A stretch of DNA of 64,000 nt from an uncultured Gemmatimonas sp. (GCA_964439025.1 CAYTMW010000005.1:90671-154670); one strand, 5' to 3'. Positions 18,451-42,578 are shown, counted from the stretch's first letter. Notes: a model not told the origin generated them from the letters alone. Numbers and translations are program-made.

Positions 18451-19254
18451 ATGCGGACCTACGATCTCTCCCAGCCGCTCAATCAGGAAGTCTCCTTCTG
18501 GCCGTACTATCCGCCATTCGAGGTGAAGTACATCAAGCGCAAGGCCGAGCATGGCGTGAATGCGCAGTACATCCAGACCTCGAACCACATGGGGACCCAC
18601 CTGGACGCGCCCCGGCACTTCGTGACGAACGGCCGGACGATCGACGAGATCCCGATCGAATGGCTCTGCGGCCCGGGCGTCATCGTCGATCTCCGGGACG
18701 AGATGGGCGATCTCGCGGTCTACACCCCGCAGATGATCGAGAAGCGGGTCAAGGTCAAGACCGGAGACCTCCTGATTCTCCATACCGGGTTCCACCGCTA
18801 CTCCCAGTTCGGCGCCGCGCCCGACGAGGAGCGCTACATCCACATGCACCCGGGCGCGCACCCGAGCATGGTGCCGTGGCTGCTCCGCAAGGGAATCCAC
18901 ATCTGGGGGGTGGACTGCGTCAGCACCGACCACCCGATGAATCTTCCGATCGGGCGATTCCTCGGGAAAGGCATGCACGAACACTGGGCGCGGGTGCGGG
19001 CGGCGGCGGAAGCGAAGTTCGGTGGAAAGAAAGCGGTGGACAAGATGTTTCCCGACTCGGCCTATCAGCTGACTCACAACGCGCTGTTCCCGAAGGACTG
19101 CATGCACATCGAGAACGTCGGCGGAGAAATCGACGTGCCGGAGCTGCAGAACAAGCGGTGCATCGTCGGGTGCTTCCCGTGGAAATTCCGTGGCGGCGAA
19201 GCGGCCTTCTGCCGGGCGGTGGCGTGGCTCGGCGAGTGGCCGCGGAATCCGTAG
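18451..19254 (+). CDS. Cyclase family metal-dependent hydrolase (kynurenine formamidase-like)
   Basis: [11 protein letters not shown] (HxGTHxDxPxH) signature, GVDCVS, HIEN. Confidence 0.9.
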
Positions 19255-19304
19255 TTCCGCGGCCAAAGACCCCGTGCCCACGCGCATTCGCTCCGGTGCG
19301 GGGA

Positions 19305-19768
19305 CTGTGGGATCCACAGATTTCACAGACCACACAGATTGGACAGACACAGGAGAAGAGAAGGGATCCTGAGACCTACGCCATCATCGGGGCGGCAATG
19401 GATGTCCACCGGACCCTCGGGCCCGGTTTTCTCGAATTGGTTTATCGGGAAGCATTGGGATTCGAGCTGGCGTTGCGAGGCATTCCGTATGTCCGGGAGA
19501 TCGAAATACCAATCCACTACAAAGGCATACCGTTGGCGGTTCGTGTATCGCGCCGATTGTGTTTATTTCAGGGATGTACTCGTGGAGTTGAAGGCTTTGA
19601 ATCGCCTCACAACCATCGATGACGCGCAGGTCATCAACTACCTAGTCGCGACCAGGCTCGGCCGGGGAATCCCTTTGAACTTCGGACGCACATCCCGTCA
19701 ATACAGACGATTCGCGGGCCCCACCCTCTCTGCCGCTTCTTCATCTGTGCAATCTGTGGATCCCACAG
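19305..19768. mobile_element. Putative GxxExxY cassette bounded by hairpin-ended inverted repeats of 9-bp tandem units
   Basis: CTGTGGGATCCACAGATT (19305-19322) is the exact reverse complement of 19751-19768. The match extends to 24/25 nt, followed by CACAGAnnn units. It encloses only the GxxExxY gene. Mobility is inferred. Confidence 0.6.
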
Positions 19769-37372: not shown

Positions 37373-37957
37373 GTGTCCGCACTTGCCGCTGTCGCCGCCC
37401 GCCCGCATCAGTATGCCTGGGCAGCGGACCGTCCGGCGGCAATGACCGAGCTGGTCCGGCGCGCTCAGGCGGGAGATTCCGACGCGTTTGCGGCGCTCTA
37501 CCGCACCCACGTGGGCAACGTCCACGCGCTGTGCCTCCGGCTCGCCGGCGACGCACTCGACGCCGCCGATCTGACCCAGGACGTATTCATCCGCGCCTGG
37601 GAATCGCTGGGATCGTTTCGGGGTGAGAGCGCGCTCGGCAGCTGGCTCTTCCGGCTTGCCGTCAACGCATTCCTGGGCAACCGGCGCGCCTCGGGACGTC
37701 GCGAGCTCCGGGTGTTCTCGGTCGCCGAGCCCGGGATGCTGGAACGGGGAGGGGAAGGGGCGTCGCCGGGGACGAAGCTGGATCTCGAACAGGCAATCGC
37801 GCGCCTTCCCAAAGGGGCCAGGATGGTTTTCGTGCTCCATGACATTGAGGGGTATCAGCATGGGGAAATCGCGGAGATGACCGGGATTGCAGCGGGGACG
37901 TCAAAGGCCCAGCTCTTCCGGGCGCGCCGCCTGCTGCGGGAGGCCTTGGAGCGATGA
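37373..37957 (+). CDS. ECF RNA polymerase sigma factor
   Basis: DLTQDVF..AW, FRGESALGSWLFR and region 4 HGEIAEMTG...GTSKAQLFRAR. Start uncertain. Confidence 0.92.
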   Translation: MSALAAVAARPHQYAWAADRPAAMTELVRRAQAGDSDAFAALYRTHVGNVHALCLRLAGDALDAADLTQDVFIRAWESLGSFRGESALGSWLFRLAVNAFLGNRRASGRRELRVFSVAEPGMLERGGEGASPGTKLDLEQAIARLPKGARMVFVLHDIEGYQHGEIAEMTGIAAGTSKAQLFRARRLLREALER

Positions 37958-38571
37958 CCTGCCAGGAGCTTCGCGCCCGGGCCGACGCATACGCACACGG
38001 CGAGCTCGATGCCCGTGACGCCGCGGCGTTCGAAGCGCATCTCGCGACCTGCTCCGCCTGTGAATCGGCGCTCCTCGCCCTGGCCGCCGCCCCCCCGGGA
38101 ATCGCCGGGCTGTCGCGGTCGATCGAGCCCCCGGCCGATCTCTGGCCGGCGATTCGCGTGCGCATGGCCTCGCCGCGCGGGATACGCTCGCGGATCGTGG
38201 TGCCTCGCTGGGCCCTGGCCGCGGCCGCGGCGCTCCTCGTTGCGCTGTCGTCCGGTGTGACCGCGGCGCTCCTCACCTCCGGCGCGCCACCCGCCGTCGC
38301 CTCCCGCGACATCAGCGCGCTCGAGGCGCAGTACTCCGCGGTGAGTGAGGACCTGACCGGCGCGCTGGAGCAGGCGCGGTCCCGGCTCTCACCCGAGACG
38401 ATGGCGACCATCGAGCGGAATCTCCGGATCGTCGATGCCGCCCTCGATGAGACGCGGCAGGCGCTCGCCAGGGATCCGGGCAACGCCGCCCTCGGCCAGA
38501 TGGTCGTGACCGCCTGGCGGCAGAAGGTGGATCTGCTCCGGCGCGCCACCGCGCTCGGGACCGAGAGCTGA
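37954..38571 (+). CDS. zf-HC2 anti-sigma factor
   Basis: MTC...HLATCSAC zinc motif, one TM helix, coupled to the sigma gene. Confidence 0.87.
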   Translation: MTCQELRARADAYAHGELDARDAAAFEAHLATCSACESALLALAAAPPGIAGLSRSIEPPADLWPAIRVRMASPRGIRSRIVVPRWALAAAAALLVALSSGVTAALLTSGAPPAVASRDISALEAQYSAVSEDLTGALEQARSRLSPETMATIERNLRIVDAALDETRQALARDPGNAALGQMVVTAWRQKVDLLRRATALGTES

Positions 38572-39455
38572 TGCGATTTCTTCGCTTGTTGCCCGCGCTG
38601 CTGCTCGTGGCGCCACTCGCGGCGCAGCAGAAGATCGAACGCCGCATCGCTATCGCGTCCGATGCCTCGATCCGGATCCACAACCTGGTGGGCAGCATCC
38701 GGATCATCGGATGGGATCGCGACTCGATTGCGGTGACCGGCTCGGTTCCCCCGGGAGCGGGGTCCTTCTACATGGGGGGATCGGGACGCGGCGCCAAGCT
38801 GGGCATCGAGCGGCAGGATGAGCTCAAGGAGGGGCAGCCCGCCACACTCGAGATCCGGGTTCCGCGCAACGCGCGCCTCTGGGTGAAATCGGCGAGCGCC
38901 TCGGTGGAAGCCTCCGGTCTCACCGGCGAGCTGGAGTGCTCGTCGGTCGACGGATCCATCCGGATCGAAGGCTCGCTCCGGCTGGTGGTTGCCGAATCGA
39001 TGGAAGGGAATCTCAACGTCGCCGGCGCCATGGGCGTCGTCCGCCTCAAGGGCGGCGGGGGGACGATCACGCTGCGCGGCGCGCGGGGCGACGTGCTCGC
39101 CACCACGATCGGCGGCGCCATCGTGGCCACCGATGGCGCGATCACGCGGGCGCATCTCGAGACGGTATCGGGCACCATCGCCTATGACGGGACCGTGAGT
39201 CCCCGGGGCACCCTCGACGTGGCGACCCACAGCGGCGACGTGACGCTCCGGCTCCCCGCCGATATCTCCGCGGAGTTCGATCTCGGCTCCTTCGACGGCG
39301 CGATTCTATACGGGCTGAGCGGCAAGGGCGAGGGCAAGGGCGAGGGGCCTCCGAAGCCGTTCAAAGGGAAGCCGATTTCCTTCACGACCGGCGGCGGTGA
39401 GGCCCGAGTAATCGTCCGATCTTTCAAGGGAGAGATCCGCATCCTCAAGCCGTAG
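38571..39455 (+). CDS. DUF4097 family beta-strand repeat protein
   Basis: Signal peptide, GWDR, repeated xxSG/xxDGxI units; usual third gene of this type of ECF cassette. Confidence 0.85.
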   Translation: MRFLRLLPALLLVAPLAAQQKIERRIAIASDASIRIHNLVGSIRIIGWDRDSIAVTGSVPPGAGSFYMGGSGRGAKLGIERQDELKEGQPATLEIRVPRNARLWVKSASASVEASGLTGELECSSVDGSIRIEGSLRLVVAESMEGNLNVAGAMGVVRLKGGGGTITLRGARGDVLATTIGGAIVATDGAITRAHLETVSGTIAYDGTVSPRGTLDVATHSGDVTLRLPADISAEFDLGSFDGAILYGLSGKGEGKGEGPPKPFKGKPISFTTGGGEARVIVRSFKGEIRILKP

Positions 39456-39500
39456 TTCCCGCCATCTGCTTCGGGTATGTTTCACCCCATTCAGAACTGC

Positions 39501-39599
39501 ATCCACAGATTACCCAGATTGCACCGATTAATTGCGCCGAACATCACATCGAGGTCGGGAACGGGCTGATCTGTGAAATCTGTGAAATCTGTGGATCCC
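39501..39599. repeat. Gene-less inverted repeat of 9-bp units matching the ends of the GxxExxY cassette
   Basis: atc-cacagatta-cccagattg-caccgatta ... gatctgtg-aaatctgtg-aaatctgtg-gatccc. 39579-39599 is the exact reverse complement of 19309-19329. Confidence 0.88.
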
Positions 39600-39652
39600 T
39601 CTGATCGCTCCGAGAAACCGGTGGTCGAGAGTCCCGTGAACGAAGCCAGATC

Positions 39653-40687
39653 GTGAGTCGAACTACTCGCCTCGTCCTGCTCCTCGTGGGCGCCTCGCTC
39701 GTGGCGCTGATGATCTGGAAGACCGGCCTGGGAGTGCTCCTGGCCGGTCTCCGTTCATCGGCCTGGGTCGTCGCCGCGTTGATTCCTCTGTGGATCGTCG
39801 TCTACATGCTGAATGCGATTGCCTGGCGAATGCTCACCTCCGACGGGGGCAAGTCGCTGCCGCTCCTGGAGGCGTTCCGGATCACGCTGATCGCCTTCTC
39901 GGTCAACTACGCGACCCCGCTCATGAGCTTCGGCGGCGAGCCGCTCAAGGTCGTGGCGGCGACCCCCTGGCTCGGCCATCGTCGCGCAGTTGGCTCGGTC
40001 GTGGCCTTCCGGCTGCTTCACGCGCTCGCGCATGTCATCGGGTTTCTGGTCGCGCTGGTCCCCGCCTGGATTCTGCTGCCGCACACCCCGCTCGTCATCG
40101 GCCTCATCGCCGCCGTCGGCCTGCTGCAGGTGTTCTTCGCCGTGTTCCTGCTCTCCCGGCACCGGGAGGGAATGGCGATCCAGCTGCTGCATCTCATTCG
40201 CCGCATTCCCTTTTTGCGCCGTCTCGCGCGGGTGCTGGAGGCGCGCACCCCGGCGCTGCACGAGATCGACGAACATCTAACGGCGGTCTACACTCGCGCT
40301 CCCCGCCGCTTCTACGCCGCGTTATCGGTGGAGACCTTCGCGCGCTTTCTCACGCTGTCGGAGCACTGGGTCATCCTGTACGGCCTGGGCTTGGGGAGTG
40401 ATCCGGCGCGGGCGCTGGTCATCGGGAGCTTCTCGTCGCTGGTGATCAACGCGCTCTCCTTCCTGCCGCTCGAGCTCGGCTCGAAGGAGGGAGGACTTTA
40501 CCTGATCTTCAAGTGGATGGGGTTTGCGCCGGGGCTCGGACTGCAGGCGTCACTGCTGGGCCGGATTCGTGAGCTGATCACCATCGGAGTCGGGATGGGT
40601 CTGATCTGGACCGTGCGGGATGTTACCACCCCCGCTTCGCCCGCTCCTTCTTCGCCTCCGCATGACCATGATTGGCCGCCCGCCTGA
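39653..40687 (+). CDS. Lysylphosphatidylglycerol synthase TM-domain (UPF0104 flippase-like) protein
   Basis: NYATP..FGGEPLK and P.ELGSKEG motifs; multiple TM helices. The 3' end overlaps the convergent kinase gene by 65 bp. Confidence 0.82.
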   Translation: MSRTTRLVLLLVGASLVALMIWKTGLGVLLAGLRSSAWVVAALIPLWIVVYMLNAIAWRMLTSDGGKSLPLLEAFRITLIAFSVNYATPLMSFGGEPLKVVAATPWLGHRRAVGSVVAFRLLHALAHVIGFLVALVPAWILLPHTPLVIGLIAAVGLLQVFFAVFLLSRHREGMAIQLLHLIRRIPFLRRLARVLEARTPALHEIDEHLTAVYTRAPRRFYAALSVETFARFLTLSEHWVILYGLGLGSDPARALVIGSFSSLVINALSFLPLELGSKEGGLYLIFKWMGFAPGLGLQASLLGRIRELITIGVGMGLIWTVRDVTTPASPAPSSPPHDHDWPPA

Positions 40688-42578
40688 GCCAATCCCTCCC
40701 GGCGAGGGGGTCCTCCCGCATGACTTTCCCCTTGAGCAGCATCATCGCGATCTGGTATTCCGCCTCAGGGTCTTCCTTTGAGGCAGCCAGATTGAACCAC
40801 TTGACCGCGGCGCCTTCGTCCTTCTTGATGCCGCGGCCGGTGAGGTAGGCCACCCCCAGCTTGGACATCGAGGGCGCGTCGCCCAGCTCTTCCGCGGCCT
40901 TCGCGTACCACCGCACGGCGTCCGTGGCATTCCTCTCGAACCCTTTCCCGTCCTCGTAGCGCCGCGCCACGATGACGTAGGCCTCCTTCACGCCGAGATA
41001 GGCGGCGGTGAGGTACTTCCGCGCCGCCTTCTCTTCGCTCGCCGCTACGCCGCGCCCGCTCTCGTACCGTCGCGCCATCTCCAGCACCGCAATGACGTCG
41101 GTGCTGTCCGCCGCGAAAGTGAGATGCAGCGCCGCAGCCCGGTCATTCCGCTCGACTCCGTGTCCTTCGGAATACAGGAGACCGAGATTCCGGTGGGCGA
41201 CGGCGCTGGTGTCGGCTTCGGCGGTGCAGCGCGCAAAGGCTCTCGGCCAATCGCCCGCCTGAAACGCGCTTTGACAGGTGGCGACGGCGGCAAGCGGGGG
41301 CGGGGCGACGGGTGTGCTGTCCACGGTGGCCACCGGCGCCGCCGACGGTCGCGGGCGCGGCGGCGCAGGCCGGACTGGTGCCGGCGTGCGTGTCTTGACG
41401 CCGATGTCAACCGGGGCCGTAAGGGGAGCCACCGGCACCGCCGGGGAAAGCCCGGCCCGATACGCCGCGAAGGCGCCGCCGCCGAGAATCACCAGCCATC
41501 CCGCCGCGGCGAGCCAGGGGCGCCTTCGTGTCGGGATGTTGAAAGTGGATTCCCGGCGCACGCCGCCGCCTTCCGCCGCCGTCACCATCTCCCCGCGAAG
41601 AGAGCGGGCAAAGGCGTTCATCGAGGAGAAGCGGAGCTTCGATTCCTTCCGGAGCGCCTGGTGGATCGTGGCCGACATTGCACTCGGGATGTCGGCGACC
41701 AGCCGGGAGAGTGGCGTGGGCTCCTCGAGGAGCTGCTTGACCATGACCTCGCGGACATTCTCTCCCTCGAACGGAACCCGTCCGGTGAGCATCTGGTAGC
41801 CCACCACCGCGAGCGAGTACTGGTCGCTGCGCGGATCGGGTGCGTGCTTTCCCATCGCCTGCTCGGGGCTCATGTACTGCGGCGTTCCGATCACGACGCC
41901 GGTGCCGGTGAGGGAATTCTCGAGCGACGAATCCATCGCCTTGGCGATTCCGAAATCCATCAGCAGGATGTGCTGCGTCTTGCCGTCGATCATCAGGTTT
42001 TCGGGCTTGATGTCGCGATGCACCACGCCGGCCTCGTGGGCCGTCTGCAAGGCTTCGGAGGCTTCGAGCAGAATCCGCCGCACTTCGGCCACAGGCAGGC
42101 GGCGCTCCCGGGCAAGCAGACTCTTGACCGTTTCGCCGTGGACGAGCGGCATCAGCAACCAGAGGATGCCATCCGCCTCACCGACGTCGTACACCGGGAC
42201 GATGTTGGGATGATGGAGCACTGCCACCGCTTCGGCTTCGCGCCTGAAGCGCGCCACGAGCGTCTCGGTGAGGATGAGGTCGGGGCGGAGCACCTTGAGC
42301 GCGAGCTCGCGCTTGAGCCGGAGATCACGCACGGCAAAGACTTCGGCATAACCTCCGCGACCGATCAGGCGGCCCAGCTCGTAATTGGAGCCAAGCGCGG
42401 CGCGAAGTCGCTCGGGAGCGAGCTCGTAACTGATGGCGGTGATGGAAGAGGCCCGGCTGACGCCGATCAACGTATCGCTGAGGACTGGAGAGGCGGAGGG
42501 GACCCCGCAGGCGGGGCAAAATGCCGCGTCAGCCGGGATCGGATGATCGCAACTGGAGCAGGGACGGGTGGGGCTCAA
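40623..42578 (-). CDS. Ser/Thr kinase with N-terminal zinc ribbon, TM helix and C-terminal Sel1 repeats
   Basis: CSSC...FCPACG; GRGGYAEV, HRDIKPEN, DFGIA; repeats of the type A..WY.KAA..G. Confidence 0.92.
   Translation of the reverse strand: MSPTRPCSSCDHPIPADAAFCPACGVPSASPVLSDTLIGVSRASSITAISYELAPERLRAALGSNYELGRLIGRGGYAEVFAVRDLRLKRELALKVLRPDLILTETLVARFRREAEAVAVLHHPNIVPVYDVGEADGILWLLMPLVHGETVKSLLARERRLPVAEVRRILLEASEALQTAHEAGVVHRDIKPENLMIDGKTQHILLMDFGIAKAMDSSLENSLTGTGVVIGTPQYMSPEQAMGKHAPDPRSDQYSLAVVGYQMLTGRVPFEGENVREVMVKQLLEEPTPLSRLVADIPSAMSATIHQALRKESKLRFSSMNAFARSLRGEMVTAAEGGGVRRESTFNIPTRRRPWLAAAGWLVILGGGAFAAYRAGLSPAVPVAPLTAPVDIGVKTRTPAPVRPAPPRPRPSAAPVATVDSTPVAPPPLAAVATCQSAFQAGDWPRAFARCTAEADTSAVAHRNLGLLYSEGHGVERNDRAAALHLTFAADSTDVIAVLEMARRYESGRGVAASEEKAARKYLTAAYLGVKEAYVIVARRYEDGKGFERNATDAVRWYAKAAEELGDAPSMSKLGVAYLTGRGIKKDEGAAVKWFNLAASKEDPEAEYQIAMMLLKGKVMREDPLAGRDWLRRAANHGHAEAKKERAKRGW

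Follow-up and report, generated by a model that had tools for sequence, protein, structure and literature searches.

Genomic context and anatomy of the element

The window analyzed here is a stretch of 64,000 nucleotides in contig C5 of an uncultured Gemmatimonas genome (G000; 3.99-Mb assembly, 131 contigs, 66.8% G+C, 89% completeness). Two genes on the + strand, encoding a DUF4097 protein and a flippase-like protein, are separated by an intergenic region which contains an inward-facing pair of repeat arms at 39501-39596. The features of this locus, preceded by a gene-bearing relative of the element found in the same window, are listed below.

19312..19761, + strand, gene-bearing family member: left arm 19312-19340, pseudogene at approximately 19371-19713, right arm 19743-19761
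38571..39455, + strand, DUF4097 (Toastrack) gene, upstream; Pfam PF13349, E 7.3e-6
39486..39500, no strand, left flank: 15 nt, lineage-specific, belonging to a 167-bp block missing from empty sites
39501..39530, + strand, left arm: ATC cap, then CACAGAT-TA, CCCAGAT-TG and CACCGAT-TA
39531..39566, no strand, spacer: approximately 36 nt of unrelated sequence (38 nt when the arms are taken as 29 nt)
39567..39596 (39599 with the GGGATC cap), - strand, right arm: three perfect ATCTGTG units plus GAT, the family consensus
39600..39652, no strand, right flank: lineage-specific, unique in the genome, reaching the conserved GTG start of the downstream gene
39653..40687, + strand, LPG_synthase_TM ("flippase-like") gene, downstream; Pfam PF03706, E 1.9e-23

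The start codon and N-terminus of the LPG_synthase_TM gene were conserved among relatives. A zf-HC2 anti-sigma-like gene (37954-38571) lies directly 5' of the DUF4097 gene, and a convergent Ser/Thr kinase gene with Sel1 repeats is located downstream of the flippase-like gene, within 40623-42578.

The original prediction, made from the sequence of the window, had described an intergenic palindrome of 99 bp with three 9-bp units per arm and about 38 bp of unrelated spacer. This description was confirmed, the length being 96 bp, or 99 bp if one counts the CCC which completes a shared 21-mer. The palindrome is imperfect because the arms, read from the outer to the inner end, differ at 5 of 29 positions; units 2 and 3 of the left arm are each one base off the core CACAGAT. 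The best matches to the left arm elsewhere in the genome were other arms of the "ATT-ACnCAGAT-TGCAC" flavour (contigs C56, C30 and C72). The 21-mer GGGATCCACAGATTTCACAGA is matched perfectly at 19309-19329 (+) and 39579-39599 (-) and, with a single mismatch, at 19744-19764 (-), so that the right end of the element is, as had been claimed, the exact reverse complement of the outer end of the cassette, an identity beyond chance (expectation 0.00 in 100 shuffles). When a single mismatch was allowed, ATCCACAGATT matched the window four times, at the four arm ends, compared with 0.35 expected, and 0 of 100 shuffles reached four matches.

For the present analysis we defined a CRCAGAT-arm family, comprising arms of the kind that form the ends of GxxExxY cassettes: at least two tandem 9-bp units per arm, an outer RYCC cap with inverted arms and, in the full-length form, a GxxExxY open reading frame (ORF) between the arms. 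The element carries 3 + 3 units and ATCC caps at 39501 and 39596, and its spacer of 36-38 nt has no ORF, which places it with the gene-less form. Unit, inward orientation and ATC cap are common to element and cassette, as originally proposed. The element is very probably a real, lineage-specific, gene-less member of the family.

The spacer (39531..39566) was single-copy in the genome by blastn-short. A gene remnant in the spacer was considered and rejected, since alignment with the interiors of the five cassettes in the genome gave a best score of 11 compared with 8.9 +/- 1.2 for shuffled sequence, 16 of 200 shuffles scoring as high. A bigger repeated unit extending 45 nt to the left and 56 nt to the right of the element was likewise rejected, both stretches being unique in the genome. 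The outer unit (..ATCCACA) was also compared with the DnaA box consensus; this reading was rejected because other phyla mostly carry the variant ATCCGCAG.

The arm family in the genome

In the whole genome, 23 exact copies of ATCCACAGATT were present, where base composition predicts 0.3. Searching for CACAGAT-like units chained at intervals of 9 bp returned 64 chains, 48 of which survived a stricter filter. The genome-wide search for arm pairs with tabulation of their spacers, as suggested at the outset, gave 19 clean inward pairs, 5 with a GxxExxY gene and 14 gene-less. The gene-bearing pairs measure 334-458 bp and enclose all 5 TIGR04256 (GxxExxY) loci of the genome; the 14 gene-less pairs, among them the element at 39501-39596, measure 64-126 bp. 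At least three more pairs are degenerate (C18, C36:4616 and C56), there are a few solitary arms, and two cap flavours occur, ATCC and GCCC. The 21-mer GGGATCCACAGATTTCACAGA has 3 copies in the genome, its 18-mer core 13 and its 16-mer core 20. This 21-mer simply represents the consensus of the family, and for that reason the cassette lying 20 kb away is no privileged partner of the element. The proposal that the element copies the ends of that particular cassette therefore holds as membership of one repeat family and fails as a special tie.

No spacer was shared by any two gene-less copies in the genome, and only the arms recur, apart from T-runs. Spacer composition ranged from 33 to 76% A+T (genome value, 33%); runs of 6-8 T or A are present in the spacers of the C3, C40, C43, C55 and C72 copies and absent from that of the element. 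The gene-less copies are intergenic and mostly 0-50 bp from stop codons, with 7 of 17 between convergent ORFs. A common neighbour family at these ORF 3' ends was rejected, as the recurring ORFs of ~490 aa were unrelated proteins cut by the extraction window. The linker after the first core was TT in one arm and TA, TG, TC, GA or GG in the other in 12 of 13 gene-less pairs, and on this post-hoc count the two ends look systematically unlike. At C55:1650-1860 (locus L115) a CACAGAT element is nested in the spacer of another palindrome, built of 7-bp GGTGAGC units, and at the C40 site an arm of CCCTGAC units abuts the element there.

GxxExxY cassettes and the encoded protein

The GxxExxY gene in the window matches TIGR04256 in two frames, with a +1 frameshift near 19540, and has ACC where the C6 and C51 copies have the start ATG; it is a pseudogene. 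The C6 copy carries an 8-bp deletion and the C7 copy a large deletion plus a stop, so that 3 of the 5 copies are broken and 2 (C2 and C51) are intact. The start codon of the intact copies lies inside the left arm, where the unit CACAGATGA is translated as M-T-Q-I, and their stop falls in the right arm (C51) or shortly beyond it (C2). Many GxxExxY proteins in databases begin with MTQI.. and finish with ..SVQSVKSVDP, that is, with translated arms.

The cassettes are long-standing residents: pairwise identity of the five copies within the genome is only 65-78%, and the window cassette has orthologues in 9 further species of the genus and is vertically inherited; for both reasons mobility must be rare. 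The ATCC-type cassettes in C5, C6 and C51 share homology which begins 75-100 bp before the left arm, and those in C5 and C6 also have ~100 bp downstream in common, so the copied unit exceeds the arm-to-arm interval. At 19240-19262 in the window, the upstream homology takes in a small hairpin, CCGCGGAA..TTCCGCGG, that spans the stop codon of the preceding gene.

Residues E46, D76, E86 and K88 of the GxxExxY protein were invariant in 49 sequences. The structural model (pLDDT 87) had as its best-ranked fold matches mostly PD-(D/E)XK nucleases at Z 5-7.7, including Cas4 SSO0001, lambda exonuclease, BpuSI, BglII and Hjc; all Z scores were below 8 and the fold search singled out no PD-(D/E)XK subfamily. 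By invariant residues and modelled fold, GxxExxY (PDDEXK_3) has the characteristics of a putative active PD-(D/E)XK nuclease. A sequence search of the PDB with a 12-sequence GxxExxY profile gave 0 matches at E <= 1, and PADLOC assigned no defence family. The family is large (1408 clusters at E <= 1e-5 from one query), and a survey of the superfamily lists the function of GxxExxY (PF13366/TIGR04256) as unknown (PMC3424549). Relatives were found in 8 of 72,556 plasmid records, all predicted to be non-mobilizable and mostly very large replicons, and a plasmid-borne origin is thus not indicated.

Coupling of arms and gene across phyla

We sampled 80 GxxExxY loci from phyla including Acidobacteriota, Verrucomicrobiota, Planctomycetota, Chloroflexota, Bacteroidota, Nitrospirota, Thermodesulfobacteriota and Gemmatimonadota. 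Within 150 nt of the gene, 75 of the 80 loci carry an arm, with CRCAGAT and most often CGCAGAT as its core, and 5 carry none; arms were found on both sides in 61 and a canonical inward pair in 53. Control windows at the locus ends contained an arm in 5 of 160 cases. A Chloroflexi contig (L025:1090-1412) has four tandem gene-less pairs with an 86-bp period just upstream of its GxxExxY gene, and L053 has two 147-bp modules 415 bp apart.

Constraint on the orthologous window cassette was expressed as mean pairwise identity in a 7-species alignment, the ORF values being those of the five species with a read-through copy.

Left arm, 0.88
Right arm, 0.74
Upstream spacer, 0.46
Left arm to ORF core, 0.45
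ORF core to right arm, 0.37
Downstream spacer, 0.51
ORF codon positions 1+2, 0.79
ORF codon position 3, 0.385

These values indicate that the protein and arm sequences have been kept while neutral sites are saturated.

In 26 genomes of the genus, including the unpublished G010, the arm pattern matched 0-79 times per genome and a reversed control pattern 0 times. The number of matches correlated with that of GxxExxY loci (Spearman rho 0.67, n=26) and of uninterrupted full-length genes (0.72), in correlations which ignore phylogeny and include many incomplete genomes. The anticipated tracking of gene number by motif number was thus observed, and the motif was not equally abundant in genomes lacking the gene, the mean being 31.9 arm matches with a GxxExxY locus (n=18) compared with 7.6 without (n=8). 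In a phylum sample of 121 genomes, including the unpublished G084, a looser pattern with a background of ~0-11 was used, and all 4 genomes with at least 20 arm matches had at least 5 gene matches. G111, a genome of the same order which is 100% complete, has no PF13366/TIGR04256 match, yet contains ~7 real arm pairs, and this speaks against dependence of the arms on the gene. The outer unit of these pairs, CRCGGAT (C[AG]CGGAT), seems to be a variant used consistently and not the outcome of random decay. G013 has 14 arm matches and lacks the gene.

Insertion polymorphism at the element's site

In metagenome contigs of four relatives, whose flanking proteins are 86-93% identical (L102, L103, L105 and L106), the DUF4097 stop and the GTG start are separated by an empty stretch of ~30 bp, in which GGGCTATCTTTCGTC abuts the GTG start directly. 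The more distant L111, G002 and G003 also have a short empty site, and G014 has 108 bp without the element. In a contig from metagenome run X7, which is ~90-95% alike, positions 39456 and 39678 are linked by 52 other letters. The presence or absence of the element in relatives, which the original prediction had proposed as a check, therefore yielded an empty site in each of these cases, and its position is not fixed among the relatives examined. Neither a cassette nor CACAGAT arms were found at this site in G011, G014, G002, G003, G005, G007, G012, L102-L108, L111 or L112.

The filled allele was recovered in runs X2 and X5 (one soil sample, an independent study) with 0-3 differences over 365 nt. 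Runs X6 and X7 gave small shares, X6 covering little beyond an arm, and uncovered parts were not counted as evidence. Metagenome contigs of other loci share only the arms, their loose ends falling at 39494/5, 39528, 39569 and 39596/39601, and contig depth in independent soil runs was 199-245 on the right arm versus ~20 in the flanks.

Relative to the empty sites the gain is 167 bp, made up of 15 nt, the 96-bp element and 56 nt; both extra flanks are, like the spacer, unique in the genome. No target-site duplication was seen at the element, where the flanks ..ACTGC and CCCTC.. show no direct repeat. Comparison with these sites indicates that the element is a recent insertion, which reached this lineage once it had diverged from the nearest relatives sampled.

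For another two gene-less copies, five congeneric species were inspected. The copy in C55 is missing from G007, G004, G002 and G009 and that in C40 from G007, G004 and G009, all of which have a plain site at the position concerned; other tandem-unit palindromes are found instead in G011 (at the C55 and C40 sites) and in G002 (at the C40 site). Given presence or absence at three loci and the other palindromes found there, the positions are polymorphic and these 3'-intergenic spots are hot spots. At the element's own site, the sister group G011 (L002), L104 and L112 has a different palindrome of 8-bp units exactly in place of the element, with seven GACGCAAA units in G011 and four GAGGCAAA units in L104 and L112, facing TTGCCNCC units. 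In L107 and L108 the spot is taken by a degenerate insert of 55 bp.

States of the cassette at the orthologous site of the window copy

The site orthologous to the window cassette was found in the following states.

Full cassette: G036, G009, G037, G005, G018
Cassette broken or cut by a contig end: G006, G001, G010
Internal deletion: G032
3' gene end and right arm only: G016
Decayed gene: G017
Gene-less pair: G011, spacer reading ..GACCACAAAACGTAT.. (D-H-K-T-Y, compare the gene start RDPxTY)
Gene-less arms: G012
Remnants: G007, G031
Empty: G002, G008, G014, G004

As intact, truncated, gene-less and empty states all occur at this one locus, gene loss that leaves a footprint does take place in the family.

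Hairpin folding and arm conservation

The RNA of the element was predicted to fold as one long imperfect hairpin (-36.9 kcal/mol, z = -3.27; 1 of 200 shuffles as good). A scan of 39300-39800 returned no promoter and no terminator-like site, that is, no G+C-rich stem-loop with a T-run, and Rfam at permissive thresholds had nothing on the element, the lone match being a chance-level snoRNA outside it (E 0.72). Within the genome there was no arm-to-arm covariation, agreement at variable positions being 0.53 versus 0.506 in shuffled pairs (214 of 1000 shuffles as high). An apparent cross-phylum covariation (0.54-0.68 versus 0.46-0.50) was rejected as confounded by lineage-specific unit variants. 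The conserved feature of each arm is the heptamer at 9-bp phase. Since this is kept without covariation, arm conservation points to protein recognition, with two unlike ends, rather than to stem pairing.

A proposed mechanism for the element and the alternatives

We favour, with a probability of roughly one half, the reading that the element is a non-autonomous REPIN- or MITE-like unit served in trans by the GxxExxY nuclease. The full-length form of the family is the ~450-bp cassette, with a GxxExxY gene between inward arrays of phased 9-bp sites (CRCAGAT, cap RYCC). The arms would be the cis-sites of the protein, several protomers binding the phased heptamers at each end. A gene-less pair would then be a non-autonomous partner on which the intact C2 and C51 genes could act in trans, a scheme we liken to REPINs with RAYT or Ds with Ac. 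The element itself entered the spacer between the DUF4097 and flippase-like genes after divergence from the closest sampled relatives. Family membership, insertion polymorphism, arm constraint and arm-gene coupling across phyla were all observed; we infer that GxxExxY binds or cuts the arms and thereby moves or maintains the gene-less copies. Several findings weigh against mobilization in trans. No target-site duplication was seen and the inserted block is 167 bp, not the bare 96 bp; the gene-less copies have no common spacer, which MITE or REPIN populations amplified from one master do have; 3 of 5 genes are broken, and G111 and G013 have arms without a gene. We also know of no strand-transfer chemistry in a nuclease of 125-140 aa. 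The suggested MITE- or REPIN-like partner moving in trans thus stands as a gene-less family member at a polymorphic site, and is weakened by the missing duplication, the unshared spacers and the size of the block.

The four readings considered here partly overlap. A full cassette may instead have arrived here and then shed its gene through an internal deletion, the unit never having moved without it, as the original prediction also allowed. Loss of this kind can be observed directly at the site orthologous to the window cassette, including the G011 gene-less pair with its gene-start-like spacer, and three of the five GxxExxY genes of this genome are already broken. We nevertheless consider this explanation rather unlikely for the element because the relatives examined have neither cassette nor CACAGAT arms at its site, and because its 36-38-nt spacer resembles none of the five cassette interiors beyond shuffles. 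With the four closest relatives empty, insertion and complete gene loss would have to share one short branch. What survives of that proposal is the process, real at the sister locus; arrival directly as a gene-less unit would be the simpler reading here. It is less probable still that the palindrome acts at the RNA level, as a long imperfect stem in the DUF4097-flippase transcript that either is cut by RNase III or forms a 3' end or something like a terminator, in the manner of 23S rRNA intervening sequences, its link with GxxExxY being historical only. The stable predicted fold would suit such a role, as would the position of gene-less copies close to stops or between convergent ORFs, the other tandem-unit palindromes held by sister species at the same spots and the persistence of arm pairs in G111 without the gene; the cassette size and 28-30-bp arms also match the Coxiella intervening sequence (IVS; PMC4990558). 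Against it stand the absence of covariation between arms at variable positions, the first linker, which is systematically mismatched in 12 of the 13 gene-less pairs, the zero count of terminator-like sites and Rfam families, and a phased heptamer kept across phyla with one protein family, which is more than mere complementarity would require.

The least probable of the four readings takes the gene-less palindrome as an uninterrupted GxxExxY target, a homing landing site at which cleavage and repair through arm homology would produce a cassette. In a cassette the gene sits exactly between the arms, its start codon falling in the left one and its stop in the right one or just beyond, which is how a homing-endonuclease gene would split its own target; in other phyla L082, L088, L039 and L023 have the gene beside complete gene-less modules. 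This reading leaves the spread of gene-less pairs to new loci unexplained, and there are 14 gene-less pairs to only 5 cassettes. With cassette copies only 65-78% identical, no sign of recent conversion is seen.

Relation to known systems

A close counterpart of the element is the REPIN-RAYT system, in which repeats and gene persist together under long vertical inheritance according to published accounts (PMC3337134, PMC3116915, bioRxiv 10.1101/2022.05.22.493013). The two systems have in common intergenic gene-less inverted-repeat doublets with a spacer, a low-copy enzyme gene flanked by the same repeats, and joint persistence; in the present case the window cassette is kept across the genus and genomes lacking the gene have fewer arms. 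The element is such a doublet, and the same repeats flank its candidate partner gene. The partner here is however PF13366/TIGR04256, with a PD-(D/E)XK fold and ~125-140 aa, whereas RAYT is an IS200/IS605-like HUH/Y1 transposase; the arm is a tandem array of three 9-bp units, whereas a REP is a single hairpin; and here the spacers differ between copies and the motif is common to several phyla.

Class II elements such as Ac/Ds and En/Spm have internally deleted forms and subterminal repeats, and those of Ac/Ds bind the transposase. The element resembles MITEs and deleted class II elements in being small and non-coding (96 bp) with terminal inverted arms of 29-30 nt common to a gene-bearing relative, and deletion derivatives of the gene-bearing form were seen directly at the sister locus. 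Its short sites, reiterated close to either end, are reminiscent of those subterminal binding repeats in Ac/Ds. Unlike MITEs, it has no target-site duplication and no population of many copies with a common interior, only the arms recurring, and the partner protein is no known transposase. BIME/RIP-type REP clusters of enterobacteria are inverted pairs at gene 3' ends with a short A/T-rich or protein-binding centre. The gene-less pairs share this location, with spacers of 33-76% A+T, but their sequence is unrelated, nothing seen here connects their arms with IHF or gyrase, and the arms are tied to a specific nuclease gene family.

A further comparison is with 23S rRNA IVSs that carry an S23p/four-helix-bundle ORF. 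The 23S rRNA IVS of Coxiella is described as 428-444 nt long with a 28-bp terminal stem, a small decaying ORF and excision by RNase III, and ORF-less short forms and a sporadic distribution are also mentioned (PMC4990558). The cassettes are similar, with ~430-450 nt, ~28-bp terminal inverted repeats, a small and often decaying ORF, ORF-less forms and a sporadic distribution. They differ in that the element lies between two protein genes and not in helix 25 or 45 of 23S rRNA, the cargo family is another one, and the IVS stem is near perfect while the arms here are phased heptamers with non-complementary linkers.

G000 also has 8 loci encoding a four-helix-bundle protein (TIGR02436, Avd/S23p-like), with inverted arms of tandem 7-8-bp units around 7 of them and weakly around that in C3, an architecture parallel to that of the GxxExxY cassettes. 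The loci with arms are as follows.

C1:33548-33868
C2:85182-85457
C14:68490-68780
C33:345-662
C24:45366-45500
C9:54482-54779
C51:10454-10600

The arm units differ from locus to locus (GGGAGCC, GGGTGCT, CTGCTAA, ACCTGTA, GGGCGCAA, GCTATC and GAGGTGA). The palindromes that sister species have at the element's site look like gene-less forms of this cassette kind. It is conceivable, though we hold this only tentatively, that GxxExxY cassettes, gene-less pairs and four-helix-bundle cassettes form one widespread class of bacterial element, in which a small cargo protein would recognize phased repeats at both ends and the elements would persist vertically like REPIN-RAYT systems, decay to gene-less palindromes and repeatedly colonize the same 3'-intergenic positions. 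The 23S IVS would then be its noticed corner, GxxExxY a sequence-specific nuclease and the 9-bp-phased CRCAGAT a cross-phylum recognition code.

The open literature searched gave no description of arms of this kind beside GxxExxY, and open full texts on GxxExxY and PDDEXK_3/PF13366 had nothing about repeats or mobility. The arms also have a practical consequence in that they break metagenome assemblies: contigs stop at the arm border and many GxxExxY contigs are ~1 kb. A motif array which travels with GxxExxY across phyla under constraint offers a concrete candidate substrate for a very large family. If the favoured reading is true, it would be a second long-lived pairing of an enzyme gene with non-autonomous repeats, on a different fold, where so far mainly REPIN-RAYT has been described, and the repeats would be linked to the old puzzle of rRNA intervening sequences.
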